A stretch of DNA of 21,942 nucleotides, from contig NZ_FOJI01000028.1 of the NCBI RefSeq assembly GCF_900111235.1, positions 1 through 21,942 on the forward strand, read 5' to 3'. This document shows positions 3,065 to 19,601 of the stretch, in pieces (position 1 is the stretch's first letter; the number at the start of each line of letters is the position of its first letter). Origin of the DNA: [Clostridium] fimetarium. GTDB taxonomy: Bacteria; Bacillota; Clostridia; Lachnospirales; Lachnospiraceae. Below the pieces are notes generated by a model, which worked only from the letters and a program-made list of their open reading frames with translations, had not been told where the DNA came from and did no database searches. Position numbers and translations under genes: made by a program.

Positions 3065-3124
3065 TTGATAGAAGATAGAAGATTGATTATTAGTGATAAA
3101 TTTAATGAAAGCAAAAGGTGTCAC

Positions 3125-4258
3125 ATGGAAATAGAAGATAATGTGGAAGCTAGCGTTAAAGACAAGGAAGAAAAACGTATTTTGAAAAGTTTAGCAGAGC
3201 CTCTTTTGGCCTGGTATGATGCGAATGCTAGAATTTTGCCATGGAGAGAAAATGCTGCGCCCTACCGTGTTTGGATGTCAGAAGTGATGTTGCAACAAAC
3301 TAGGGTAGAGGCTGTAAAGTCATATTTTGAAAGATTTATGAAGGCATTGCCAACAATTCAAGCATTGGCAGAAATAGATGATGACGCTCTTCTAAAACTG
3401 TGGGAAGGTCTGGGCTATTATAGTAGGGCTAGAAATGTAAAAAAGACGGCAAAGATAGTAGTTGAGCAATATGGTGGAGAATTTCCATCCAATTATGATG
3501 ATCTAATGGAACTTCCTGGGATCGGTAGTTATACAGCAGGGGCTATTTCTTCTATCGCATTTGCAAATCCAGTGCCGGCAGTAGATGGCAATGTATTAAG
3601 AGTGATTTCCAGAGTTTTGGCTAGTAAAGAAGATATTACAAGTCAATCCGTAAAAAAGAAAGTTGAAGATGAATTACGTGCAACTATGCCACAACTCAAA
3701 CCAGGAGCGTTTAATCAAGCACTAATGGAGATAGGGGCAACGGTATGCGTACCGAATGGAATGGCAAAATGTGAGATTTGTCCCTTGAATCAATTGTGTA
3801 AAGCGAATATACTAGGTATTGTAATGGACTTGCCGAAAAAGACACCAAAGAAACCTAGAACGATTGAGGAGAAAACAATATTAGTAATCAAGTCAGGAGA
3901 TAAGGTCGCAATTAGGAAAAGGTGTAGCAAAGGAATTTTAGCTGGATTATATGAATTTCCAAATATGGAAGGCTATCTATCAGAAAAAGAAGTATTATAT
4001 TTGGTTAAACAAATGTCACTATCCGCAATTAGGATTCTGAAATTAGAGGATTCTAAGCATATCTTTACGCATAAAGAATGGCACATGATTGGATATGTGG
4101 TTAAGGTGGAGGAGTTAGAACAAAACAATAGTATATTAAAAGATTGTTTTTTTGTAGAACCAGCAGAAATAGAAGAAAGATACCCGATTCCTACGGCATT
4201 TCAACGTTATACAAAGTACATCAATATAATACTAGGAAATGATAAGTTTAAGGATTAA
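3125..4258 (+). CDS. mutY: A/G-specific adenine DNA glycosylase MutY (HhH-GPD + 4Fe-4S cluster loop + NUDIX-like C-terminal domain)
   Basis: LLAWYDANARILPWRENAAPYRVWMSEVMLQQTRVEAV..LWEGLGYYSRARN is the classic MutY N-terminus. The Fe-S cysteines are CVPNGMAKCEICPLNQLC. Start ATG 3125 with SD AAAAGGTG; the ORF track's 3065 is upstream and in frame. Confidence 0.9.
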   Translation: MEIEDNVEASVKDKEEKRILKSLAEPLLAWYDANARILPWRENAAPYRVWMSEVMLQQTRVEAVKSYFERFMKALPTIQALAEIDDDALLKLWEGLGYYSRARNVKKTAKIVVEQYGGEFPSNYDDLMELPGIGSYTAGAISSIAFANPVPAVDGNVLRVISRVLASKEDITSQSVKKKVEDELRATMPQLKPGAFNQALMEIGATVCVPNGMAKCEICPLNQLCKANILGIVMDLPKKTPKKPRTIEEKTILVIKSGDKVAIRKRCSKGILAGLYEFPNMEGYLSEKEVLYLVKQMSLSAIRILKLEDSKHIFTHKEWHMIGYVVKVEELEQNNSILKDCFFVEPAEIEERYPIPTAFQRYTKYINIILGNDKFKD

Positions 4259-4410
4259 GATAGTTTAAGGATTAAGATAGTTTAAGGATTAGGATAGTTT
4301 AAGGATTAGGATAGTTTAAGGATTAGGATAGTTTAAGGATTAGGATAGTTTAAGGATTAGGAAAATTTAGAGATTAGGAAATTTTAGGATTAGGAAAATT
4401 AGGATTGGGA
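4241..4410. repeat. tandem repeat array, ~10 copies of a 17-bp unit GATAGTTTAAGGATTA(A/G), degenerating at the 3' end
   Basis: Directly visible. The first unit overlaps the last codons and stop of mutY. The last units decay to GAAAATTTAGAGATTAG / GAAAATTAGGATT. Units are contiguous, so this is not a CRISPR array. Confidence 0.9.
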
Positions 4411-4464: not shown

Positions 4465-5427
4465 ATGATTAGATGGGGCATTTTAGCAACAGGAGTCATT
4501 GCACATAAATTTGCAAAAACAATTAATAGCATGGGTAATGAGACACAGCTGGTAGCATGTGGTTCAAGAAATATAGAACATGCAAAAGCATTTGCACAGG
4601 AATTTTCTATTCCAAAATACTATGATTCATATGAGGAGCTTGTTCAGGATGACGACGTAGATGCAATCTACATTGCAACACCCAATAGCATGCATTTTGA
4701 AAATATGAAAATGTGTATCGAAGCAGGAAAACATATACTTTGTGAGAAACCGATGACAACGAATGCAGAGGATGCAAAAAAAATATTTGAATTAGCGAAA
4801 GAAAAAGGCATCTTTTTGATGGAAGCTTTTTGGATTTCGATGTTACCAATGCATTTAAAAATCGCACAGATTATATCGGATGGAGTAATCGGAGAAGTAA
4901 AACATATCAGAGCTGATTTTGGATTTACAGTACAAGGTGAAAGAAGAAATAGAAAATTTGATGCATCACTTGGTGGTGGGGCTCTACTTGATATAGGAAT
5001 ATATAATATTGGATTTGTTGCAATGACGCTTGGTTATCATCCAATCAAAATCCAGTCAAAGGTTCATATGAGTGAGTTTGGTACAGACGATTTTGAGACT
5101 ATGATATTCGAATATGAAAATGGAGCAACAGCATCGATGACTGTATCAATCGGTATGAAAATAGAAAAAGAAGGCTTGATCTATGGTACCAAAGGTAGTA
5201 TTCGTCTTCCAGATTTTCAGCAGGCGGAAAAAATGTATGTAGATTTTTATAATGGCACGACCGAAGAAATCAATATGCCAGTGGACATAAATGGTTTCGA
5301 GTATCAAATAAGAGAAGCAATCAAGTGCATCGAGAGCGGTAAAGTTTCAAGTAGCATTCAGACGCCTCAAAATTCAATATCTGTTATGGAAATAATGGAT
5401 TCAATTCGTGAGCAGTGGGGAAAGTAA
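4465..5427 (+). CDS. Gfo/Idh/MocA family NAD(P)-dependent oxidoreductase
   Basis: N-terminal Rossmann motif MIRWGILATGVIAHKF. EKP motif in HILCEKPMT. SD AAAGGAG lies 9 nt upstream. Confidence 0.9.
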   Translation: MIRWGILATGVIAHKFAKTINSMGNETQLVACGSRNIEHAKAFAQEFSIPKYYDSYEELVQDDDVDAIYIATPNSMHFENMKMCIEAGKHILCEKPMTTNAEDAKKIFELAKEKGIFLMEAFWISMLPMHLKIAQIISDGVIGEVKHIRADFGFTVQGERRNRKFDASLGGGALLDIGIYNIGFVAMTLGYHPIKIQSKVHMSEFGTDDFETMIFEYENGATASMTVSIGMKIEKEGLIYGTKGSIRLPDFQQAEKMYVDFYNGTTEEINMPVDINGFEYQIREAIKCIESGKVSSSIQTPQNSISVMEIMDSIREQWGK

Positions 5428-5500: not shown

Positions 5501-7207
5501 GTGGATAATAATTGTAAGGAAGCTATTCTAAGCGAGGATTATGCGGATTTTATAATAAATTCTGGGAATGCGCTTGATGAAATTACTAAAATCGACGGCA
5601 CATGCTCATTTAATTTGCGTGAGAATAGATTTAATGTTTATGTACCAATTAGCAATTTACCTAAAAATTTTTTTCAGATGTTTGGTTATAGCGCTATTCC
5701 CAATGTATATGGATTATTAGATATAGGTAGTTTAGAAGCTTCTGGGGTTTTGCGAGTGCAAAATATTCCTATCTTGCAATTACGTGGAAGTGGAGTATTA
5801 ATTGGAATAATCGATACAGGAATTGATTATCGACAGGAAGCTTTTATAAATAGTGATAAAACATCTAAAGTTTATTCTATTTGGGATCAGACAATTGATA
5901 GCGAAAATTCACAACCGGAAGGGTTTTATTTTGGAACTGAGTATACGCAGAGTCAGATTAATACTGCGTTGGCAAGTCAAGATCCATTATCAGTAGTTCC
6001 AAGTAATGATGACAATGGTCATGGTACTTTTTTAGCTGGAATTGCTGCCGGTAATAGAAATGAAAAAGAGAAATTTTCAGGAGTAGTTCCAGATGCAGAA
6101 ATCGTGATGGTAAAATTGAAGCCTGCTAAAAAGTTTTTGCGTGATTTTTGGCGTATTCCTGATGGCGTTTTAACATATCAAAAAAATGACTTTATTTTGG
6201 CAATAAGATATCTTGAAGAAGTTGCAAAAAATGCAGATAGGCCAATGTCTATCATAATGGGTATTGGAACTTCACAAGGTGGTCATGATGAAAAGGGATC
6301 ACTGAGCAGCTATATTTCTGAATTGGCTGCGCAGGAAGGATTTTCGATTTCTATTGCAGCAGGTAATGAAGGAAGTTCAGGACACCATTATCTAGGCTTT
6401 ATTCAGAATGAAAATTTTGTGGATAATGTGGAATTGAAGGTTGGAGAAAATGTCAGTGGATTTTCTATGGAATTCTGGGGGCAGACACCCAGTAGTTTTT
6501 CGATTTCCATTAAAACGCCGAAAGGGGAGTTTATCCCGCCGATTCCACAAACAATTAAAGAGACAAAAGAAATACGATTTACGTTTGAAAGTACGACGAT
6601 AAGTGTAGATTATCAATTGGTGGAGGCTCAATCTGGCGAGCAACTAATTCTTGTTCGATTTACAAATCCAACTCCTGGTGTTTGGACTTTTCAGGTTAAT
6701 TTAAAAAGCAATATATCTTTGCGCTACCATATTTGGCTTCCTATTGTGGATTTTTTAAGTATAGACAGCTTTTTCGTGCAATCAAATCCTGAATACACAT
6801 TAACATCTCCAGCAAATACCTTTATTCCACTGGTTGCTACAGCATATGATTATAAAACGAAAGTACTATATATCAATGCAAGCAGAGGATTCATGCGTAA
6901 TGAAAATATTTCTCCAACACTAGCAGCACCAGGAGTGGACTTGATTGGACCGTCGGTTCCTCAAGGTTACAAGGTAAGTTCAGGAACCAGCTTGGCGGCA
7001 GCACATACAGGAGGAGTGGCGGCTATGCTTTTAGAATGGGGGATTGTAAGGAAAAATTATCCGCAAATGAGTACCGTGCAAATAAGAAATTTACTGATAC
7101 GGGGTGCTAGCAGGGAAAATTCAATTATTTATCCAAGTAGGCAGTGGGGATATGGAATTTTAGATTTATATAATGCGTATAATACGTTCAGAAATACGAT
7201 AACTTAG
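5501..7207 (+). CDS. S8 family subtilisin-like serine peptidase with no signal peptide (possibly Csp-like, intracellular)
   Basis: Catalytic triad motifs are VLIGIIDTGID (Asp), HGTFLAGIAAG (His) and GTSLAAAHTGG (Ser). No N-terminal hydrophobic signal is present. The start is uncertain: GTG 5501 has a GGTGGG SD only 3-4 nt away. Confidence 0.8.
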   Translation: MDNNCKEAILSEDYADFIINSGNALDEITKIDGTCSFNLRENRFNVYVPISNLPKNFFQMFGYSAIPNVYGLLDIGSLEASGVLRVQNIPILQLRGSGVLIGIIDTGIDYRQEAFINSDKTSKVYSIWDQTIDSENSQPEGFYFGTEYTQSQINTALASQDPLSVVPSNDDNGHGTFLAGIAAGNRNEKEKFSGVVPDAEIVMVKLKPAKKFLRDFWRIPDGVLTYQKNDFILAIRYLEEVAKNADRPMSIIMGIGTSQGGHDEKGSLSSYISELAAQEGFSISIAAGNEGSSGHHYLGFIQNENFVDNVELKVGENVSGFSMEFWGQTPSSFSISIKTPKGEFIPPIPQTIKETKEIRFTFESTTISVDYQLVEAQSGEQLILVRFTNPTPGVWTFQVNLKSNISLRYHIWLPIVDFLSIDSFFVQSNPEYTLTSPANTFIPLVATAYDYKTKVLYINASRGFMRNENISPTLAAPGVDLIGPSVPQGYKVSSGTSLAAAHTGGVAAMLLEWGIVRKNYPQMSTVQIRNLLIRGASRENSIIYPSRQWGYGILDLYNAYNTFRNTIT

Positions 7208-7238
7208 CAATTAAAATCATAGTAAAAAAATGATTATT

Positions 7239-7305
7239 AAAATATAGCTTATGTAAAGTTTGAAGGTGAATTTCAAAAACAACTTTACATAAGCTATATT
7301 TTATC
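7239..7305 (+). terminator. long AT-rich hairpin (22-bp perfect stem, 20-nt loop) followed by a T-tract; likely terminator of the S8 gene
   Basis: aaaatatagcttatgtaaagtt at 7239-7260 is the perfect reverse complement of aactttacataagctatatttt at 7281-7302. It is followed by ttatctt. Confidence 0.55.
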
Positions 7306-7334
7306 TTGACAACTTAACGAATGTTAAGTAAAAT
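7306..7334 (+). promoter_or_regulatory. sigma-A-type promoter TTGACA-N17-TAAAAT for the TetR gene, with a small palindrome TTAACgaatGTTAA in the spacer (candidate autoregulatory operator)
   Basis: TTGACA at 7306-7311, TAAAAT at 7329-7334, spacer exactly 17 nt. The inverted repeat TTAAC/GTTAA lies inside the spacer. Confidence 0.5.
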
Positions 7335-7422
7335 AATAACAAGCGTTAAATAAATCTCTAAGACCTATATATGAGCATAAATGTATATTTCAATATTAGG
7401 AAGCAAGAAAGGATCACTCAAT

Positions 7423-8049
7423 ATGTTAAAAGAAAAAAAAGATACAAAGCAGATCATTTTAGATACTGCGCTTGAATTATTCTCAAAGCGAGGTTACAGT
7501 GGTGTATCCATTCGAGATATATCTGGGAAAATTGGTATCAAGGAAAGCGCAATATACTATCATTTCAAAAATAAGCAGGATATTTTCGATGTTTTATGTC
7601 AGTCATTTAATAATGTAATGTATGCAATACCCTCGCAATTTAGCGCTAAGATGGCAAACGTTAAGAACGTTGAAATAGAAGCATTTTCGATGGTATGCCA
7701 TGGATATTTTACAAATTATTTAATGGAAGATACGGTTAATAGATTCCTTAGAATGCTGATTTTAGAGCAGGGAATTAGTGAAGTTGCAGAGATGATGTAT
7801 CACAATATTATGTTTGATGAAGCGATTGGCAATCAGATACTTATATTTAGTTGGTTGATACAAGTGGGATTTTTAAAAACCAATAATGTGGAACGAATGG
7901 TAATGGATTATCACACAATGGTAGTTTATCTTTTTCATAGATATTTGATATGCGGGGAAATAACAGAACAAGTTAAGCAGATTATAAATGAGGAATTATC
8001 GAAACATATCGAGCATTTTTTACAAAAATATGGAGCAGACCAGAAGTAA
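7423..8049 (+). CDS. TetR/AcrR family transcriptional regulator
   Basis: The N-terminal HTH (ILDTALELFSKRGYSGVSIRDISGKIGIKESAIYYHFKNKQDIF) is the canonical TetR_N domain. Start ATG 7423 with SD AAAGGA; the ORF track's 7381 is upstream and in frame. Confidence 0.85.
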   Translation: MLKEKKDTKQIILDTALELFSKRGYSGVSIRDISGKIGIKESAIYYHFKNKQDIFDVLCQSFNNVMYAIPSQFSAKMANVKNVEIEAFSMVCHGYFTNYLMEDTVNRFLRMLILEQGISEVAEMMYHNIMFDEAIGNQILIFSWLIQVGFLKTNNVERMVMDYHTMVVYLFHRYLICGEITEQVKQIINEELSKHIEHFLQKYGADQK

Positions 8050-8054
8050 AAATA

Positions 8055-8232
8055 AGAAATGAATCAAGAATAATCAAGAATAAGTCAGGGATGAGCAAGA
8101 ATAGCGAAGAATAGAACAAGAATAGCGAAGAATAGAACAAGAATAGCGAAGAATAGAGCAAGAATAGAGCAAGAATACAGAAGGATAGAGTAAGAATAGA
8201 GCAGGAGTAAATGAGGAGTAAATGAGGAGGAA
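8055..8232. repeat. AG-rich intergenic tandem repeat, ~10-11-bp unit AAGAATAG(C/A)G, partly organised as a 21-bp unit
   Basis: caagaatagcgaagaatagaa occurs three times and then degenerates (caagaatagag, taagaatagag). It ends with gagtaaatgag twice, directly before the ABC ATPase SD. Confidence 0.85.
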
Positions 8233-8238
8233 ATAAAG

Positions 8239-9282
8239 ATGGAGAATATAATTAGTACGGTGGGTTTAACAAAAACATATAAGGGAACAACAGTTGTAAA
8301 AGATGTTAATATAAACGTAAAAAAAGGTGAGATTTACGGATTTATAGGAAAGAATGGAGCAGGAAAGACTACGACAATTAGAATGCTACTGAACTTAATT
8401 AAACCGTCTAGCGGAAGCGTGGAATTGTTTGGAGAAACAGTAACGGATAGCAATATTCACGATAATCTAAGAAAAATAGGCGCGATTATTGAGACCCCTG
8501 GATTCTATATGAATCTTTCGGCAAGGCAAAACCTAGACATTCACCGACTTATGATGAATGTCTCAGACAAAACGAGTATAGACAGAGTGCTTGATATCGT
8601 TGGATTATCAGAGGAAGGCAGCAAAAAGGTTCGCAACTATTCACTTGGAATGAGACAAAGACTTGGGATTGCAAGAGCTCTTTTGCATACACCAGAAATA
8701 TTGCTGTTAGATGAACCCACGAATGGCCTTGATCCACAGGGAGTAGTAGAAATACGTGAATTGTTATTAAACATAGCAAAAAGCGGAACTACGATTCTTG
8801 TATCCTCACATATTTTAGCGGAAGTTGAAAAAATAGTAAGCACAATCGGTATTCTTAATAATGGGATATTGCTGGAACAAATAAGCAAGGAAGATTTCCA
8901 AAATAAATGTAAACATACAACGATCTACAAGGTAAATGATGTCGCTAAGGCGGAAACACTTATTAAGCAGTACATAGAAAATATAGGTATCAATCATAGT
9001 AACAGCAACAATCATAGTAACAGCAACAATCAGCGTGACAGTAACAATAATAGTAATAATGGAATTAATCGTAACGATAGTTATGGCATAACGATATCAC
9101 AAGATACAATATCACTTGTCGGTCAATTATCGAGTCAGTCACTCAATGGAAAATTAAACAAAATATTGGTCGAAAATGGGATTGAGGTTCTCGAAAGTAA
9201 AATTGTATGTTCTTCGTTAGAGGATTATTTTATAGAGCTTACAGGGACCGCAAAAATAAATGAATGCGGGGGAACTCGCTGA
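8239..9282 (+). CDS. ABC transporter ATP-binding protein, lantibiotic-protection (MutF/SpaF/BcrA-like) subfamily, with N/S-rich low-complexity insert and DUF4162-like C-terminal domain
   Basis: Walker A GKNGAGKTTT, signature LSLGMRQRLGIARAL, Walker B ILLLDEPTNGLD. SD GAGGAGG. C-terminal NHSNSNNHSNSNNQRDSNNNSNN is encoded by an 18-bp tandem repeat. Confidence 0.9.
   Translation: MENIISTVGLTKTYKGTTVVKDVNINVKKGEIYGFIGKNGAGKTTTIRMLLNLIKPSSGSVELFGETVTDSNIHDNLRKIGAIIETPGFYMNLSARQNLDIHRLMMNVSDKTSIDRVLDIVGLSEEGSKKVRNYSLGMRQRLGIARALLHTPEILLLDEPTNGLDPQGVVEIRELLLNIAKSGTTILVSSHILAEVEKIVSTIGILNNGILLEQISKEDFQNKCKHTTIYKVNDVAKAETLIKQYIENIGINHSNSNNHSNSNNQRDSNNNSNNGINRNDSYGITISQDTISLVGQLSSQSLNGKLNKILVENGIEVLESKIVCSSLEDYFIELTGTAKINECGGTR
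8991..9062 (+). repeat. in-frame 18-bp tandem repeat (4 units) inside the ABC ATPase gene, encoding (NHSNSN)n
   Basis: caatcatagtaacagcaa twice, then caatcagcgtgacagtaa and caataatagtaataatgg. Confidence 0.8.
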
Positions 9283-9995
9283 TGAGAAATTTAATCGGTT
9301 TAGAATTAAAAAAGATAAAGAATACATTTGTAAATGGATTGGTCTTGATATCAATTCTAGCGCCAATATTAATGATAGTGCTGGTATATGCAGTCAGTAG
9401 TGACAAGACATTTTTAGAAGTGGTAATAAGCAATAGCGTGTATATTCAAATGATACCTTTTGCAGTGACAGTAATTTATGGGTGCTTCATAGTTACAAGA
9501 GAGTATAAAGAAAATATGATCGTATATCTGGAAATAACGCCGCAATCCCAGACCAAGATAATGCTATCAAAATTAATCGTGACGGTGCTTGAATTATGTT
9601 TGACGCAGGTAATTACATTTGTTTTACTATTTATAATAAATGCAGTGATTGACGGCTTTGATTTTGCGCTATTGATGAAATACGTAAAGGTAAGTTTGAT
9701 CAGCGCGGGCGCTCTTAGTGCGCTTGTACCATTGATTGTATTTATAAGTTTGGTGCGACGAAGCTTTTCGAGTGCATCAATTATTTTTTTGATGATATTT
9801 ATGTTTACATTTCCCTTTATATTTTCGGAAAATGGATATGTGTTTCCACACTTGCTACCTATGATTTTAGTGGCAAAGTTCTTCGGGAATTTAAGATATG
9901 ATAAGATAAGCTTTTTGTGTGGGGCGTTGGTGTTGACCTTGGTCGCAATGTTATTTTTATATTTGTCCATTCGAAAGACAAATAAGAAATATTAA
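9282..9995 (+). CDS. ABC-2 type permease (lantibiotic-immunity MutE/EpiE/MutG-like), 6 predicted TM
   Basis: Its ATG overlaps the ATPase TGA (TGATG), indicating translational coupling, with GGGGGA upstream. The ORF track's 9264 start lies inside the ATPase gene. The protein is hydrophobic and multi-TM with an N-terminus MRNLIGLELKKIKN typical of the family. Confidence 0.8.
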   Translation: MRNLIGLELKKIKNTFVNGLVLISILAPILMIVLVYAVSSDKTFLEVVISNSVYIQMIPFAVTVIYGCFIVTREYKENMIVYLEITPQSQTKIMLSKLIVTVLELCLTQVITFVLLFIINAVIDGFDFALLMKYVKVSLISAGALSALVPLIVFISLVRRSFSSASIIFLMIFMFTFPFIFSENGYVFPHLLPMILVAKFFGNLRYDKISFLCGALVLTLVAMLFLYLSIRKTNKKY

Positions 9996-10027
9996 TGATA
10001 TCTTTAGAAGAACTGGAGTGGTATAAT

Positions 10028-10747
10028 ATGGAAAGATATTTAAAAGCGGAAATTATAAAATTACACTCTTTAAGCATTTGGTGGCTAATCATAGCTGGGG
10101 CAATATTGCCAGGAACGATAGCTTACCTGACACTTTTTAATCAAGATAATGTATCGTGGCTTTCGTTTACTCATATGTGTTTGCTTACATTTAATATACA
10201 GTCACTACTTACTTTTTCAGCATTTGCATCCTATATATGGGCGAGAGAATATGAAGAAAACACAATGGAAGTGGTTTTGTGCTATCCATATCCAAGGTTT
10301 GTTATGATCTTTATGAAATTAGTGATACTGTTTTTTGTCATTCTAATTACGGGAGTGATGTTTTTTGTGGCAACTTTGATTGCTGGAAGAATGCTATTTG
10401 ATTCAATGATTCCAATGGAAATAATTGGAAAATTAGTGGTTGCTTTATTAAATACTGGGATGATGCATTTTTTATTGGTACCAATGTATTTGTGTATTGC
10501 TGTAATAACTAAAACATCTATATCGGGGCTTGTTTTTGGAATCGTAAATATGTGTATATGCATGGCGCTAGGTACCACAGGTTTTGTTCAATATATTCCG
10601 CAGTGTATTCCGTATGTGATGGGGGATAATCTTTTGGGCGTAAAGTCAATGACGGTTGATAATGATTTGGCTGTGTATTATACTTTGTTAATAGGCATAT
10701 TTATATTATTTACATTAATATCAAAAAAATTAGAACGCAAATTTTAG
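10028..10747 (+). CDS. second ABC-2 type permease of the same FEG-type transporter
   Basis: Preferred start is ATG 10028 (MERYLKAEIIKL...) with SD GGAG 9 nt upstream. Alternative ATG 9995 overlaps the preceding stop (TAATG). Multi-TM hydrophobic protein. Confidence 0.8.
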   Translation: MERYLKAEIIKLHSLSIWWLIIAGAILPGTIAYLTLFNQDNVSWLSFTHMCLLTFNIQSLLTFSAFASYIWAREYEENTMEVVLCYPYPRFVMIFMKLVILFFVILITGVMFFVATLIAGRMLFDSMIPMEIIGKLVVALLNTGMMHFLLVPMYLCIAVITKTSISGLVFGIVNMCICMALGTTGFVQYIPQCIPYVMGDNLLGVKSMTVDNDLAVYYTLLIGIFILFTLISKKLERKF

Positions 10748-10795
10748 GTTGAAGCATATATATAATACAGTAGGAAAAAATTAAGTGAGGGTAAT

Positions 10796-11902
10796 ATGGC
10801 AGAAAATTTCAATTTGGAAAGTTATTTGAGTAATGGAGTGGAAAATATAGTGAAAGGTGCCATAAAGGCTTCATTATCCAATCCGAAAGAGAGTATATTT
10901 ATTGCTAAGTATGCGATGTCAAGTAAGAATTCAAGAAAGCTACGCGTGGAAGCAGAAAACAGAGGTGAACATATACCTCCATTTTTAATTGCAAGTATAA
11001 CAAGTCAGTGTAATCTTCATTGCAAAGGCTGTTATGCACGAGGCAATAAAGCCTGTGTTGATAGGGAAGCCCAGAATCAGTTAACAGATCAAGAATGGCT
11101 AAGAATATTTGAAGAGGCTAAGGAGATTGGTATTGGATTCATACTTCTAGCGGGTGGAGAGCCATTTATGAGGCCGGACATTATTCGGGAAGCTGGTAAG
11201 ATACCTGAAATAATATTCCCGATCTTTACGAATGGAACAATGATTGATGATGGTTACATAAAATTATTTATAAAGCATAGAAATCTGATACCTATTTTGA
11301 GTATTGAAGGTAATGAGGAATATACAGATGCACGACGTGGTAATGGAGTTTATCAGAAGTTGATTGATGCAATGGATATAATGAAAAAGAATAAAATACT
11401 ATATGGTACCTCCGTTACAGTAACGAAGCAAAATCTAGATGAAGTAACGACTGTTGAATTTCTTGATGAGTTGTATAGCAGAGGATGTAAGGTGGTATTT
11501 TTAATTGAGTATGTCCCAATCAGTATGGATACACAGTATATGGCATTTGAAAATGAAGAGAGAGAAATATTAAAAGAAAAACTTGTGGGGTTAAGAGATA
11601 CATATGAAGATATGATCTTCATATCGTTTCCGGGAGACGAAAAGACATCGGGTGGATGCCTTGCAGCAGGGCGCGGATTCTTCCATATCAATTCCCATGG
11701 TGGCGCAGAACCATGTCCATTCTCGCCTTATTCTGATACAAACTTGAAAAATGTCTCATTGAAGGAGGCAATCAATTCTCCACTATTTAAGAATTTACGC
11801 GATAATAATTTGTTGATGGAAGAGCATGCAGGGGGCTGTGTTCTATTTGAGAGACAAGAACAAGTAAAGCAATTAATAGTGGAGACAAGGTCTGAAGTCT
11901 AA
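10796..11902 (+). CDS. radical SAM enzyme with partial SPASM / twitch-like C-terminal auxiliary-cluster motif
   Basis: CNLHCKGCYA places the CX3CX2C cysteines at residues 72/76/79. GGEPF is the SAM-binding glycine-rich motif. The C-terminal GGCLAAGRGFFHINSHGGAEPC matches the first half of SPASM (C-X9-15-G-X4-C), but the CX2CX5CX3C block is absent; a single further Cys lies in GGCVLFE. SD GTGAGGG. Confidence 0.85.
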   Translation: MAENFNLESYLSNGVENIVKGAIKASLSNPKESIFIAKYAMSSKNSRKLRVEAENRGEHIPPFLIASITSQCNLHCKGCYARGNKACVDREAQNQLTDQEWLRIFEEAKEIGIGFILLAGGEPFMRPDIIREAGKIPEIIFPIFTNGTMIDDGYIKLFIKHRNLIPILSIEGNEEYTDARRGNGVYQKLIDAMDIMKKNKILYGTSVTVTKQNLDEVTTVEFLDELYSRGCKVVFLIEYVPISMDTQYMAFENEEREILKEKLVGLRDTYEDMIFISFPGDEKTSGGCLAAGRGFFHINSHGGAEPCPFSPYSDTNLKNVSLKEAINSPLFKNLRDNNLLMEEHAGGCVLFERQEQVKQLIVETRSEV

Positions 11903-11974
11903 CAGTAATTATTATTTGTGCCTGTGGTACAAATTTTGATATGCACAGAAAAATAGGCGGTAACGGGGGGAATT

Positions 11975-12691
11975 ATGATAAAAATCGGGTTATGCGATGA
12001 TGAGACAAAATTTAGAGAAAGAGAAATAGAAATTCTTACAAAAGTACTCAACGATGGTTTCGAGTATTTAACATATGAGTTATGCGAATTTGAAACAGGA
12101 GAACAGCTTCTGTCTTATTATACGAAGGATGATATCGATATTATTTTGCTCGATATAGAAATGGGAAATGAACATGGGTTTGATGTGGCTTCAAAGCTTA
12201 TGAATATTAGAAAAGATACTAGAATTATATTTGTAACAAGTCATGAAAATCTGGTGTTTGATTCATTTGTATGTAGGCCACTTGGTTTTGTAAGAAAACG
12301 AATATTCGAACAAGAAATCCAGCTGGTTATGAGCCGTATTATAAAAAGCCTTATTGATGATAAAAAAATGATTGTGTTAGGGGAAGGAAAGGATAATATT
12401 CAACTTCTATTTAATGAGATACGAATGATAGACTCATTTAAGCATAATATAATTGTAAGCATTGAAAATAATGATATTACTTTGAGAGATAGATTATCAA
12501 GATTTGAAGATCGTCTGATTGAGGAGAATTTCGTCAAAGTTAACAAAGGCTGTTTAGTTAATATGAAATACATAAAAAAAATTGAAAACTTTGTTTTAGT
12601 CCTTATAAATGGACGACATGTGGTTATAAGCAGAAGTAAAGGAAAAGAAGTAAATAGTATTTATAAAAATTACATATGCAAAAGGGGATAA
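11975..12691 (+). CDS. LytTR/AlgR family response regulator (REC + LytTR DNA-binding domain)
   Basis: REC domain with the phospho-acceptor Asp in IILLDIEM. C-terminal LytTR domain FVKVNKGCLVNMKYIKKIEN...VVISRSKGKEV. SD GGGGGGAA. Confidence 0.9.
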   Translation: MIKIGLCDDETKFREREIEILTKVLNDGFEYLTYELCEFETGEQLLSYYTKDDIDIILLDIEMGNEHGFDVASKLMNIRKDTRIIFVTSHENLVFDSFVCRPLGFVRKRIFEQEIQLVMSRIIKSLIDDKKMIVLGEGKDNIQLLFNEIRMIDSFKHNIIVSIENNDITLRDRLSRFEDRLIEENFVKVNKGCLVNMKYIKKIENFVLVLINGRHVVISRSKGKEVNSIYKNYICKRG

Positions 12692-12697
12692 TGTGTA

Positions 12698-13975
12698 ATG
12701 ACAATCTTAAATATGTCAGTATTCATTTTTATGAACAACATACTGCAGGGGATATTTTGGATGTTGTGTGTTAATTCAATACTACAGGAAAAACATCATA
12801 TCTTAGCGAGAAATATATCTAAAGTGGTGTTAATTAGTATCGGAATAATAGGCTTCAATATTATAAATAACAAGCAGCATTTAATTGAAATTTCGGATAT
12901 TACTTTGATTATGTTTCTGACATTTTTAGTTTGTCTAATTCTTTATTATAATCAATTTCTTCTAAAGAGAATGCTGTATTGTATGGGAGCATTATCCTTA
13001 GTAGCAGCGCTGTTAACCGTCTATATGAAAAGTGAAATGATATTAGCTAGTTCGTTAGTGCTTTCGGTGTGGATTTTAACGAGCATTTATGCGCTAGGCC
13101 TGTTTGCTCAGAATATGAAGGCGCGGTTTAGCTGGAATATAGAGTACTCAGAATTTAGCATAATAATTGTAATCGTTGTCTGTTTAATATATTCGTTGAT
13201 TAAGGCTGTTGGGCACAATCAAAATAAAATAGATGAAAAATGGAATGATATGCAACTTTGTGTATGCGCGGTACTTTTGATCAATGTTGTATTTTATTAT
13301 ATTGCCGGAAGTATATATGAATTATTTGAGAAAAAAATCGAAATTAAACTAATGGAATTATCATATGAGAATAGTGAATTCAGTGCGGATAAGATAATGC
13401 ATATGCATGAAGAAGCAAGCAAAATGCGCCATGACATGAAGAACTGTATGGCGATAGTAGATAAATATATTGAACATGGAGATTATGTGGAAGCAAGAAG
13501 ATATATTTATACGCTAATGGAAGAAAAAATAGATGTTCTTGGAATTAAGATGTATTGTTCAAATAAAGTGCTAAATTACATAATTAATAATAAATTCGCA
13601 GTTTGTGAAAAAGAAAACATAGAAACAAAATGTATTATAAGTGCTAATCTTAAGTGTATATCTGATATTGATTTAAGTATATTAATTGGGAATCTTCTTG
13701 ATAATGCAATTGAATCATCTCAAAAGACCGACTGTGGGATGATTAATATTGAGATATATGAAGAAGAAAATATTACCTTAGTGATAGAGAATACGATTAA
13801 AGAAAGTGTGATACAAAACAATCAAATATTTGCTACAACCAAGCAACATAAATCGAAACATGGATTTGGGATGATAAGTATTAAAGATATTGTGAAAAAA
13901 TATAGAGGGACCATAGAATATAGCGAAGAGGGTAATGTTATGACTTGTCTAGTAATCTTGAAAAAAACATTTTGA
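12698..13975 (+). CDS. AgrC/ComD-like (HPK10 subfamily) sensor histidine kinase, polytopic N-terminal sensor + GHKL ATPase
   Basis: About 200 aa with 6-7 TM helices. H-box SKMRHDMKN, N-box LLDNAIESS, G-box GFGM. The start is 6 nt after the response-regulator stop, with SD AAAGGGGA. Confidence 0.85.
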   Translation: MTILNMSVFIFMNNILQGIFWMLCVNSILQEKHHILARNISKVVLISIGIIGFNIINNKQHLIEISDITLIMFLTFLVCLILYYNQFLLKRMLYCMGALSLVAALLTVYMKSEMILASSLVLSVWILTSIYALGLFAQNMKARFSWNIEYSEFSIIIVIVVCLIYSLIKAVGHNQNKIDEKWNDMQLCVCAVLLINVVFYYIAGSIYELFEKKIEIKLMELSYENSEFSADKIMHMHEEASKMRHDMKNCMAIVDKYIEHGDYVEARRYIYTLMEEKIDVLGIKMYCSNKVLNYIINNKFAVCEKENIETKCIISANLKCISDIDLSILIGNLLDNAIESSQKTDCGMINIEIYEEENITLVIENTIKESVIQNNQIFATTKQHKSKHGFGMISIKDIVKKYRGTIEYSEEGNVMTCLVILKKTF

Positions 13976-14014
13976 TTCTCATTCATTCTCATTCATTTTA
14001 GCATAAGAAAATAA

Positions 14015-14081: not shown

Positions 14082-14184
14082 TATATAAATATTCGTTTAT
14101 TATTTATTTTTCTATTTGTGTCGCAAATGTACATGCTGATTTGTTATTACTTACAGAGAGATTAATAACTTGGGGGAACAAGAT

Positions 14185-15291
14185 ATGAAAAAAGGGAAGA
14201 TTGGCACAATCGCAGTAGGGGCGGTTGTTGTATGCATTACGGTTTCTTTGCTTTTGCAAAATGAAGTAGAGGGGAACTTATATGATATTAAGGCAAAGAC
14301 TTCTACTACGAAAGTAGAAGTGAGTTATGGTGCAGAGGCAGTGTCATATAATATTATGCGGGATAAGATGCTTTACATGGTATTGGTAAATAAGGATATT
14401 AGGGATACATATGTTAAGAATGTTATTCCACAAGTAGGAATACAAGTAGATACACAAGAATTAAAAGCAATAAGTAAAATTGCTGGTATTTTAGGTAATA
14501 ATGATAAAGAAACAACCTACAAGATAGTTACGACTAAGAGTGATATAGATGGTAAGATGTACCTAGCAGAGACAGCAACTAGTATTAATAAAAGTGTTGT
14601 GTCAGCCAGACGTATTGAACTGCCAGTTTCATATCTAAGTCAATACCCTGAATTGCCAACGGGCTGCGAGATTACATCTTTGACAACTGTTTTGAATTAT
14701 TTAAAATATAAGGTGTCAAAAGAGAATATGGCAGATAAATATTTACCAAAGTGTGATTTAGAGTCACGAGATTTTTTGAATTATTTTTTAGGTGATCCAT
14801 ACACGGATGGTGCATATGGTTGTTATTCAGCGCCTATTATAAAAGCGGCTAATTCTTATCTAAAGCAGCAAGGAAATCAATATACTGCTTACGATTACAG
14901 CGGAAGCGGATTTGGTACATTTTTAAAAGAAATAGAAGCGGGAAACCCTGTAATAATATGGTCAACGATGGATTTAGAATGCGCTTACGTATCAGCTGAG
15001 TGGACAATCAATGGTAGCGATGTGGCGTGGATTTCACCGGAACACTGTGTTGTAATGATTGGATATAATCTGGATGCCAATACAGTAACATTATCAGATC
15101 CAATGCAAGGTATTGTTACAGTTGATATGGATCTAGTGAATCTACGATATACACAAATGTGCAGTCAAGCAGTGGTTATAAAAGCTTATAGTAAAGCTGA
15201 TAACAATGCAACGAAAGCTACGGAGGCAATGACAAAAGCAACGACAAAAGCAACGACGCCAACGCAGGTGCCAACGAAAAAGACGAAGTAA
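14185..15291 (+). CDS. membrane-anchored/secreted C39-like (Peptidase_C39_2, YvpB-like) cysteine peptidase with T/K/A-rich C-terminal tail
   Basis: N-terminal signal-anchor KIGTIAVGAVVVCITVSLLL. Catalytic Cys in YPELPTGCEITSLTTVLNYL and His in WISPEHCVVMIGYN. Start ATG 14185 with SD GGGGGAA; the ORF track's 14170 is a TTG. Confidence 0.8.
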   Translation: MKKGKIGTIAVGAVVVCITVSLLLQNEVEGNLYDIKAKTSTTKVEVSYGAEAVSYNIMRDKMLYMVLVNKDIRDTYVKNVIPQVGIQVDTQELKAISKIAGILGNNDKETTYKIVTTKSDIDGKMYLAETATSINKSVVSARRIELPVSYLSQYPELPTGCEITSLTTVLNYLKYKVSKENMADKYLPKCDLESRDFLNYFLGDPYTDGAYGCYSAPIIKAANSYLKQQGNQYTAYDYSGSGFGTFLKEIEAGNPVIIWSTMDLECAYVSAEWTINGSDVAWISPEHCVVMIGYNLDANTVTLSDPMQGIVTVDMDLVNLRYTQMCSQAVVIKAYSKADNNATKATEAMTKATTKATTPTQVPTKKTK

Positions 15292-15513
15292 GGGACGCGC
15301 TACGGCCCATATAAAGGGGACGCGCCACACCCCATATAAAAGGGGACGCACCACACCCCATATAAAAGGCACGTTCATCGGTTAACGGACGGTAGGCTCA
15401 AATGTTATGCTTTCTAGCTGACACGTAAAAAGATACGTGTCGCTAGCCAGCACAACATTTGAGCCTACCGTTCGTTAAACGATGTACTTAGCCTTTTATA
15501 TGGGGTGTGGCGC
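15292..15513. repeat. GC-rich palindromic repeat element: 3 tandem copies of a ~26-bp unit (GGACGCGCCACACCCCATATAAAAGG), a ~48-bp-arm imperfect hairpin, and an inverted copy of the unit at the far end (MITE-like or structured RNA)
   Basis: The element starts immediately after the peptidase stop. Tandem copies lie at 15292-15369. Inner hairpin arms at 15391-15426 and 15435-15469 extend with mismatches to 15379-15481. ccttttatatggggtgtggcgc at 15492-15513 is the exact reverse complement of gcgccacaccccatataaaagg at 15322-15343. GC content is far above the surrounding ~30%. Confidence 0.6.
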
Positions 15514-18362: not shown

Positions 18363-19601
18363 GTGAAAATAAGATTAATTACATTTATTCAAAAAGAAAT
18401 TGTTCTGTGTATTGCGGTTCTATGTGCGATTATATCCGCGTTTCTAATTCCACCATCGAAAGCGTATATAGATTACATAGACTTTAGAGTACTAGCACTA
18501 CTATTTTGCCTAATGCTCGTAGTTGCAGGATTTCAAACGATAGGTTTGTTTGAAAATATAATTGAGAAAATGATAAAACATATCAGCAATACAAGGCAAC
18601 TTGCATTTGCACTGGTACTGATTTGCTTTTTTACAAGTATGTTTATTACAAATGATGTTGCATTAATCACATTTGTACCATTTGCAATCATGACTTTGCA
18701 GAAGATCAAAAAAGAAAAGTTGATGATATTTGTTATCGTCATGCAGACAATTGCAGCTAATCTGGGTAGCATGTTTACACCACTTGGAAACCCGCAGAAT
18801 CTGTATTTATATTCAATTTCTCAAATGGATATTTTAGGATTTCTAAGGCTTATGTTTCCAGTCACATGTTTATCTTTCGTATTAATTGCAGTGACATTGC
18901 TATTTATGAAAAATGAAAAAATAGGGACATTAGAGAAAATAGGGACATTAGAGGAAATAGGGACATTAGAGGAAATAGGGAAATTAGAGGAAATAGGCAC
19001 ATTAGAAGAAATAGGAATAATAGAGGAAATAGGTGCAGTAGAGGAAAAAGGGACAATAGACGTCAGTAGATCGGTCAACCTTGACCGGGTGCAAATGACG
19101 GCTTTTATAGTATTGTTTGCAATTTGTCTATGTACAGTACTCCATATGATTGATTATAGAATTGCAATCGTTATTGTAGTGATTACAGTACTTATATTTA
19201 ATCGAAAATTACTTGCGAAAGCAGACTATTTACTCTTGCTGACATTTGTGGCATTCTTTATATTTGTGGGAAATATGAAGCATATGACATGTATTGCAAA
19301 TGTACTTGCTAGCGTTGTAAGTGGTAATGAAATTATAGTTTCAACAATAGCAAGCCAAGTAATTAGTAACGTTCCTGCGGCAATACTACTTTCGGGATTC
19401 ACAAAAAATTATTCTATGTTAATACTTGGAACAAATATTGGTGGACTCGGAACGTTGATAGCCTCGATGGCAAGTTTGATTTCATATAAAATTTATGGAA
19501 AAACAGAAGGTGCTCGAAAGGGTAAATATTTGGCAGTGTTTTCTGTGTTCAATCTGATATATCTTTTTATTATTTTGACGGCTTGCATTATAATTGTTTA
19601 A
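18363..19601 (+). CDS. ArsB/NhaD-superfamily (CitMHS/YbiR-like) anion/ion permease with a central (EIGTLE)n repeat loop
   Basis: Polytopic protein. It carries TNDVALITFVPFA and the TPLGNPQNLYLYS motif characteristic of the ArsB/NhaD permease superfamily. The start is uncertain: GTG 18363 has a weak SD. Confidence 0.7.
   Translation: MKIRLITFIQKEIVLCIAVLCAIISAFLIPPSKAYIDYIDFRVLALLFCLMLVVAGFQTIGLFENIIEKMIKHISNTRQLAFALVLICFFTSMFITNDVALITFVPFAIMTLQKIKKEKLMIFVIVMQTIAANLGSMFTPLGNPQNLYLYSISQMDILGFLRLMFPVTCLSFVLIAVTLLFMKNEKIGTLEKIGTLEEIGTLEEIGKLEEIGTLEEIGIIEEIGAVEEKGTIDVSRSVNLDRVQMTAFIVLFAICLCTVLHMIDYRIAIVIVVITVLIFNRKLLAKADYLLLLTFVAFFIFVGNMKHMTCIANVLASVVSGNEIIVSTIASQVISNVPAAILLSGFTKNYSMLILGTNIGGLGTLIASMASLISYKIYGKTEGARKGKYLAVFSVFNLIYLFIILTACIIIV
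18915..19060 (+). repeat. in-frame 18-bp tandem repeat (~8 units, GAAATAGGGACATTAGAG) inside the permease gene, encoding (E/K)(E/K)IGTL repeats
   Basis: Directly visible. The units diverge at the 3' end (ataggcacattagaagaa, ataggaataatagaggaa, ataggtgcagtagaggaa). Confidence 0.9.

Follow-up and report, generated by a model that had tools for sequence, protein, structure and literature searches.

Several described systems are available for comparison with radical S-adenosylmethionine (SAM) enzymes that carry a complete or truncated SPASM domain. SkfB, the maturase of the sporulation killing factor of Bacillus subtilis (PDB 6efn), is a twitch radical SAM enzyme with an N-terminal peptide-recognition region of ~100 aa, which acts on SkfA in an operon for a ribosomally synthesized, post-translationally modified peptide (RiPP). 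MoaA is a GTP 3',8-cyclase, the SPASM domain of anSME is complete and holds two auxiliary clusters, and AhbD, NirJ and AhbC are tetrapyrrole-modifying radical SAM/SPASM enzymes. The full SPASM pattern reads C-x9-15-G-x4-C, gap, C-x2-C-x5-C-x3-C, gap, C; the twitch subclass is recognized by a conserved Cys pair around a hairpin, one or two conserved downstream Cys, and a SkfB/BtrN/MoaA-like fold. Here we analyze a radical SAM gene located at positions 10796..11902 of a 21,942-nucleotide stretch of [Clostridium] fimetarium DNA (contig NZ_FOJI01000028.1), referred to below as the window. The gene encodes a twitch radical SAM enzyme from an uncharacterized family, and no new class is defined by it. 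In the interpretation that we favor, with a probability of roughly 0.6, this would be a flavodoxin-driven enzyme acting on a non-peptide substrate within responses to redox, organic-peroxide or xenobiotic stress.

Sequence motifs and domain architecture

The gene and the elements of its product are as follows:

10796..11902, + strand: radical SAM/twitch enzyme gene, 368 aa (open reading frame; Pfam Radical_SAM, 4.6e-19; homologs 60-91% identical; AlphaFold2 model)
10796..10990, + strand: family-specific N-terminal extension, residues 1-65, predicted two-helix hairpin
11009..11032, + strand: CX3CX2C motif CNLHCKGC (C72, C76, C79), residues 72-79, predicted site of the SAM-binding [4Fe-4S] cluster
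11153..11164, + strand: GGEP motif, G120-P123, invariant in close homologs and in a second family alignment
11657..11716, + strand: half-SPASM/twitch motif C288-x13-G302-x4-C307, spanning a predicted beta-hairpin
11837..11839, + strand: C348 in GGCVLFE (residues 346-352), third conserved cysteine of the predicted auxiliary site

The coding sequence starts with ATG, with a GTGAGGG ribosome-binding site ahead of it, and the protein contains eight cysteines, at positions 72, 76, 79, 87, 231, 288, 307 and 348. Its membership in the radical SAM superfamily is evident from the CX3CX2C motif, from the match to Radical_SAM (PF04055, residues 67-223, 69.6 bits vs the gathering threshold of 29.5), and from the invariant GGEP, which we take to be the SAM-binding "GGE" element of the superfamily; the Pfam family Fer4_12 is also matched. 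Residues 286-307 (GGCLAAGRGFFHINSHGGAEPC, nt 11651-11716) fit the first SPASM element in the form C-x13-G-x4-C, and the Pfam SPASM profile (PF13186) matches partially, over residues 288-338 (profile positions 1-56 of 67), with 20.4 bits vs the cut-off of 21.5. No CX2CX5CX3C pattern was found in the 368-aa protein, and of the full seven-Cys SPASM domain (PF13186/TIGR04085, with two auxiliary clusters) the first element alone is present. The Cys pair around the hairpin, the downstream Cys and the predicted fold together correspond to the twitch subclass. A sequence-only reading of this DNA had proposed a radical SAM enzyme whose SPASM domain is reduced to its first half, with a single, twitch-like auxiliary site; motifs, Pfam matches, conservation and fold agree on this, and all the motifs it described (CX3CX2C, C-X9-15-G-X4-C, GGCVLFE, and no CX2CX5CX3C) were found where it had placed them.

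In the N-terminal extension AlphaFold2 predicts helices at residues 7-25 and 30-55 and no strands, and L7, Y10, V15, S33 and R50 are invariant in close homologs. A Pfam search yielded no match in residues 1-66 at E<=1, to PqqD or to any other family, which, together with the two predicted helices, indicates that the ~70-aa N-terminus, described in the sequence-only reading as shorter than a typical RiPP recognition element (RRE), is not an RRE.

Conservation of the cysteine residues

Conservation was analyzed in a close set of 40 homologs (62-90% identity) and in a diverse set of 87 full-length members (31-58% identity). In the close set C72, C76, C79, C288, C307 and C348 are invariant (40/40), and C87 and C231 are nearly so. 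Of the 87 diverse sequences, 85 retain C288, 85 retain C307 and 83 retain C348, which is invariant also in another family alignment; C231 is kept in 48, H344 in 16, and C87, situated in an insert absent from most members, in 11. Outside the SAM cluster the family conserves exactly three Cys, namely C288, C307 and C348, and a fourth auxiliary-site Cys sought among the 87 diverse members was not found to be conserved; H297 (79/87) and E305 (77/87) are candidate non-Cys cluster ligands. Because only these three Cys are conserved beyond the SAM cluster, the alignments indicate one predicted auxiliary Fe-S site with three Cys ligand candidates, i.e. a site of the twitch type. They also point to an auxiliary cluster that would be either site-differentiated, as in MoaA, presumably a parallel case of a three-Cys auxiliary site, or completed by a non-Cys ligand.

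Fold and comparison with curated families

The AlphaFold2 model of the protein (predicted local distance difference test, pLDDT, 78; predicted template modeling score, pTM, 0.82) comprises two N-terminal helices, a partial TIM-barrel core, and a C-terminal module in which short strands (~296-305) are followed by helices. Fold comparison gave figures of 22.9 for SuiB, 21.9 for SkfB, 19.5 for anSME, 19.1 for PqqE, 19.0 for viperin, 17.1 for MoaA and 11.6 for BtrN, and Foldseek returned the same set of enzymes. Judged from the model, the protein falls within the SPASM/twitch subgroup, close to no solved enzyme (15-19% identity), and searches of the PDB by sequence, profile and fold detected no close solved relative.

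Among the curated families the best NCBIfam match is ScmE, with 79.7 bits vs the 400-bit cut-off. AhbD, NirJ, PapB, StsB, MftC, anSME, MoaA, SkfB and the tungsten-cofactor maturase all score far under their NCBIfam cut-offs, most of them matching only the core, and ten distant family members gave no NCBIfam match at 1e-25. The PADLOC pVip models match, at 1e-13, over the core alone (residues 68-237) and not over the full length, C-terminal nucleotide-binding extension included, that defines a prokaryotic viperin (pVip). Assignment to a curated family was therefore rejected, as Pfam, NCBIfam and PADLOC yield only generic radical SAM matches. According to the sequence-only reading, its view would fail if the protein showed strong full-length similarity to a characterized non-peptide enzyme in a conserved non-RiPP context; the context proved to be conserved and non-RiPP, as described below, and no characterized full-length homolog was found.

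Distribution of the family

More than 8000 proteins scored as homologs, and because so many exist and their cysteines are conserved, the motif pattern cannot be ascribed to chance. The best 120 homologs are 62-91% identical and include proteins from Clostridium acetobutylicum, C. felsineum, Lacrimispora, Anaerocolumna and Herbinix; an exhaustive search yielded 535 clusters (50% identity) at E<=1e-30. Family loci were found in Lachnospiraceae, Christensenellaceae, Anaerovoracaceae, Fusibacter and Vallitaleaceae, with 60-70% identity across Clostridia, as well as in Chloroflexi at 55-57% identity; Elusimicrobia, Poribacteria and Methanoregula harbor more distant members. The protein encoded in the window is an ordinary member of this large, well conserved family of strict anaerobes, for which there is no curated model. 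In the source records the proteins are called just "radical SAM protein" or bear names transferred wrongly by automatic annotation (e.g. "AlbA"), and literature searches returned no paper on the family. Domain fusions were also considered as a clue to function: P0133 (493 aa) has the look of a NUDIX domain joined at the N-terminal side to a radical SAM protein of the family and is either a true fusion or a gene-calling artefact, P0226 combines a radical SAM fragment with an M20 peptidase, and P0135 has a 138-aa N-terminus to which no domain was assigned. The fusions were set aside, being mutually inconsistent and possibly artefacts of gene calling.

Genomic neighborhood analysis

Open reading frames were clustered for 107 sequences (106 loci and the window), 96 of which carry a family member. 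For counts corrected for redundancy we used the 95 loci with a full-length (>300 aa) copy, whose radical SAM proteins fall into 40 groups at 75% identity, and counted neighbors within four genes of the radical SAM gene. The recurrent ones are:

16/95 loci, 8/40 groups: flavodoxin of ~140 aa (Flavodoxin_5/_3), mostly directly upstream
27 loci, 7/40 groups: MarR regulator closest to B. subtilis OhrR (1z91, 1.7e-35)
18 loci, 4/40 groups: glutathione peroxidase (GSHPx, 7e-38)
8-9 loci, 5-6/40 groups: response regulator / histidine kinase
9 loci, 6/40 groups: ABC ATPase

Nitroreductases, among which the TM1586 type recurs, were found in five loci of one cluster and in L010 and L107, the latter an Elusimicrobia locus with an Fe-superoxide dismutase also near the radical SAM gene. 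Other recurrent neighbors are a second type of flavodoxin, regulators of the TetR, AraC, ArsR and LysR families, CDF and MATE transporters, Gfo/Idh/MocA oxidoreductases and NUDIX hydrolases, and in L012 an AcrB-type RND pump is located directly upstream. In two archaeal loci (L108, L112) a flavodoxin-like gene is followed by a ferredoxin and then by the radical SAM gene, and in a third (L109) a helix-turn-helix (HTH)-Flavodoxin_4 fusion is located upstream and a flavodoxin downstream. The homolog from C. acetobutylicum (67% identical) stands alone between an AraC regulator and cotF. As a separate observation, the fusions next to or near the methanogen radical SAM genes (L108 1449-2369, L109 4109-4999) join an ArsR/MarR-type HTH to Flavodoxin_4 and may be redox-sensing regulators.

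A conserved small open reading frame (20-69 aa) was sought within 800 bp of the radical SAM gene in the 96 loci and none was found. Because of this, and because the neighborhoods consist mostly of flavodoxin, OhrR, glutathione peroxidase and regulators, we conclude that the family has no RiPP context.

One gene order suggests a different function. In L006, L008 and L016 an FtsX permease, an ABC ATPase and a flavodoxin precede the radical SAM gene, which in L006 and L016 is followed by an OmpR-type regulator and a kinase. This arrangement would suit a tetrapyrrole enzyme akin to AhbD and NirJ in sequence. In conjunction with HrtBA-like heme efflux and flavodoxin, such an enzyme would carry out the anaerobic modification, degradation or detoxification of heme, in a role analogous to that of ChuW/HutW. 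The permease matches Corynebacterium diphtheriae HrtB (7w78_B) over its full length with 1.6e-16; AhbD, NirJ, NirJ2 and AhbC are among the best NCBIfam matches; and flavodoxin is the electron donor of ChuW (PMC12670364). However, the HrtB-like permease is present in only three loci, i.e. 2/40 groups, which makes this a minor rival, and since HrtB is the only solved small MacB-type permease of its kind, the match is no proof of heme specificity. Moreover, ChuW belongs to a different (HemN-like) class, and the AhbD/NirJ matches are mostly to the generic core (58-70 bits vs cut-offs of 500-650). We consider a tetrapyrrole function improbable.

Other loci bring to mind a nucleotide or pterin enzyme of the MoaA or viperin kind, concerned with Mo/W-cofactor-related maturation or with the handling of damaged nucleotides. 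In L054 the radical SAM gene lies between an FdhA-like molybdoenzyme (upstream) and a module of molybdenum cofactor (Moco) riboswitch, modA, modB and moeA; NUDIX genes adjoin the radical SAM gene in L007 and L039, and the NUDIX-like part of P0133 fits the same idea. The three-Cys site, which we take to be shared with MoaA, and a match of the tungsten cofactor oxidoreductase maturase model TIGR04317 across residues 66-307 can be added in its favor. Yet the molybdenum neighborhood is that of a single locus, the scores (49-54 bits) are far below the cut-offs of 284-380, the pVip matches are core-only, and P0133 may be an artefact; on balance such a function seems distinctly improbable. The riboswitch itself (RF01055, 46 bits, L054 9143-9433) is directly downstream of the radical SAM gene and is a single case. 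It was the sole match when RNA elements upstream of family members were considered, and was rejected as such, being downstream and controlling modA rather than the radical SAM gene.

Proposed function

We return to the flavodoxin-driven enzyme of stress responses as the preferred interpretation. Sequence, model and gene context give good support to the architecture, to the predicted three-Cys auxiliary site, to membership in a large conserved family, to the non-RiPP setting and to the partners that recur; that flavodoxin is the reductant, what the auxiliary cluster does and that the enzyme acts in stress are inferred. According to the proposed mechanism, a dedicated short flavodoxin would reduce the SAM cluster; in methanogens the electron donor appears to be a flavodoxin-like protein together with ferredoxin. 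SAM would then be cleaved to a 5'-deoxyadenosyl radical, which would abstract hydrogen from a non-peptide substrate held beside an auxiliary [4Fe-4S] cluster with one non-cysteine iron. This iron could bind the substrate, as in MoaA, or the cluster could accept the electron of the substrate radical, as in oxidation of the BtrN/anSME type. That so many Arg, Glu, Asp and His positions are invariant (R180, R181, E171, E238, D281, E282, R293, H297, E305) suggests that the substrate is probably polar. Within regulons that respond to redox, organic-peroxide or xenobiotic stress, the enzyme would serve as a stand-alone effector.

Several points weigh against this interpretation. With no characterized member in the family, any statement on the substrate or the type of reaction is pure inference. 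The clusters of radical SAM enzymes are oxygen-labile, which is awkward for a peroxide-induced role. The associations with stress genes shrink to 4-8 of the 40 groups once relatives are collapsed, about half of the neighboring genes are singletons, the sample of loci is skewed to rumen and gut Lachnospiraceae, and the window itself has no flavodoxin, OhrR or glutathione peroxidase gene. In the model, pLDDT drops under 50 around residues 73-84 and 285-292, as would be anticipated where cluster sites are modeled without metal.

A more specific version, which we put forward only tentatively and hold to be rather unlikely, is that the family comprises an unrecognized oxidative-damage enzyme of strict anaerobes. 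Flavodoxin would power it, its regulation would be shared with OhrR and glutathione peroxidase in bacteria and, in methanogens, with regulators of the HTH-flavodoxin type, and its radical chemistry would serve to repair or detoxify what peroxide or oxygen damage leaves behind, e.g. an oxidized lipid, nucleotide or cofactor.

At the family level the interesting part is the pattern of flavodoxin with OhrR/glutathione peroxidase in strict anaerobes, which hints at an oxygen-labile radical enzyme in stress defense and would be unexpected if true. The family represents a sizeable blind spot: its sequence clusters number in the hundreds and come from methanogens as well as from anaerobes of gut, rumen and sediment. 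The repeated pairing with flavodoxin, OhrR/glutathione peroxidase, nitroreductases and exporters provides concrete testable conditions.

The locus in [Clostridium] fimetarium

The genes around the radical SAM gene in the window were compared with those of a close relative, L026, whose enzyme is 90% identical to that of the window:

4465-5427: Gfo/Idh/MocA oxidoreductase
5501..7207, + strand: S8 subtilase, upstream flank kept in L026 (87.5% identical to the L026 gene)
7381-8049, + strand: TetR regulator (Pfam/NCBIfam), part of a lineage-specific cassette, 7381..10747
8239-9282, + strand: ABC ATPase, same cassette
9264-9995 and 9995-10747, + strand: two ABC-2 permeases, same cassette
11975-12691, + strand: LytTR response regulator, part of a lineage-specific downstream pair, 11975..13975
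12698-13975, + strand: GHKL histidine kinase, same pair
14170..15291, + strand: Peptidase_C39_2-like protein, downstream flank kept in L026 (60% identical to the L026 gene)

Gaps of only 49 and 73 nt flank the radical SAM gene, and a weak terminator-like hairpin (11914-11934) separates it from the LytTR/kinase pair; the gene, the TetR/ABC-2 cassette and the LytTR pair possibly belong to the same transcription unit. The DNA of L026 is 72-90% identical to that of the window, with the order MocA-S8-radical SAM-C39-like-SPFH, and lacks window segments 7207-10790 (the TetR/ABC cassette) and 11920-14008 (the LytTR/kinase pair), i.e. two separate indels. A mobile-element origin of these indels was considered and discarded, as a search for flanking direct repeats at both of them found none. 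In L026 the S8 gene ends 23 nt before the radical SAM gene and the C39-like gene follows ~260 nt after it, so that both are directly adjacent.

The link between the enzyme and the TetR/ABC transporter is lineage-specific and local, because the syntenic, 90%-identical L026 lacks the cassette, and it does not define the family. In three other loci a related TetR regulator is encoded near the radical SAM gene, and L011 and L062 have, at a distance of 1.5-4 kb from it, ATPases that share 46-48% identity with that of the window; the local link is nevertheless in keeping with a loose preference, seen across the family, for places next to regulators and exporters. The connection to an "immunity-type" transporter, to which the sequence-only reading had drawn attention, is therefore not conserved, the recurrent partners being flavodoxin, OhrR, glutathione peroxidase, nitroreductases, regulators and exporters.

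A further alternative is a RiPP maturase. The enzyme would then form thioethers or cross-links in the manner of sactipeptide or ranthipeptide maturases, on a precursor encoded elsewhere; the ABC-2 transporter would confer immunity or serve in export, while leader processing would fall to the S8 and C39-like peptidases. The ABC ATPase is closest to the lantibiotic-protection subfamily (2.2e-69, below the cut-off of that family), the two peptidase genes flank the radical SAM gene both in the window and in L026, the closest folds and profile matches are the RiPP maturases SuiB and SkfB, and PapB, StsB and WgkB are among the weak NCBIfam matches. Both hallmarks of RiPP maturases, a PqqD-like winged-helix RRE and a co-located precursor or conserved RiPP operon, are nevertheless missing: the N-terminus is a predicted two-helix hairpin, the intergenic gaps measure only 49 and 73 nt, and no conserved small open reading frame accompanies the gene in the 96 loci. 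All RiPP-maturase models score only 60-70 bits vs cut-offs of 340-650, and identities of 55-70% across phyla with unrelated neighborhoods are atypical for RiPP enzymes. Furthermore, the transporter is missing beside the 90%-identical homolog, and the S8/C39-like pairing is no longer seen at 72% identity (L027), where the neighbor is a flavodoxin and not a peptidase. A peptide-antibiotic maturase is thus very unlikely. All three alternatives, tetrapyrrole, nucleotide/pterin and RiPP, draw on few loci or on core-only similarity. For genome mining it follows that a SPASM-like radical SAM gene beside a LanFEG-like transporter is not automatically a RiPP cluster.

A few other features of the window were recorded. 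Ahead of the TetR gene, in the segment absent from L026, there is an inverted repeat (7238-7303) whose 23-bp arms match perfectly across a 20-nt spacer, immediately upstream of the best promoter-like site of the region (TTGACA-17-TAAAAT, 7306-7334); it could be a TetR operator or a terminator of the S8 gene. Purine-rich tandem repeats lie between large open reading frames at 4245-4395 (17 nt x 8.9), 8065-8203 (11 nt x 13, CAAGAATAGAG, within the ABC ATPase leader), 15292-15373 (25-26 nt x 3) and 18919-19060 (18 nt x 7.9), and could be regulatory or slippage-prone spacers. In its C-terminal part the ABC ATPase carries a low-complexity insert rich in Asn and Ser (NHSNSNNHSNSNN...), which is encoded by an 18-nt in-frame repeat at 8991-9056. 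A MutY-like adenine glycosylase (HhH-GPD and NUDIX_4) is encoded at 3065-4258, 6.5 kb upstream, and is probably unrelated to the radical SAM gene; it is mentioned solely in view of the theme of oxidative damage.

Comparison with known systems

Among the tetrapyrrole-modifying enzymes, AhbD, NirJ and AhbC belong to the top NCBIfam matches (2.7e-19 to 6.5e-16), but their scores of 58-70 bits stay below the cut-offs and come mostly from the core, and the CX2CX5CX3C pattern typical of full SPASM domains is absent from the protein studied here. anSME differs in its full SPASM domain, and its model TIGR03942 gives 52.5 bits vs the 349-bit cut-off. BtrN is matched only in the core (E 1.3e-4 with the family profile). 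The sequence match to MoaA is limited to core residues 64-152 (TIGR02666, 49 bits vs the 284-bit cut-off), the spacing of its auxiliary Cys is different, and the studied family has no consistent Moco gene context. SkfB is identical at only 17-19% of positions and its model TIGR04403 gives 48 bits vs the 300-bit cut-off; in place of its peptide-recognition region the studied family has a 65-aa helical hairpin, with neither a precursor nor a RiPP operon. The twitch region is nonetheless where the two meet, as the family profile aligns to that of SkfB with 5e-23, through the Cys-hairpin-Cys element.

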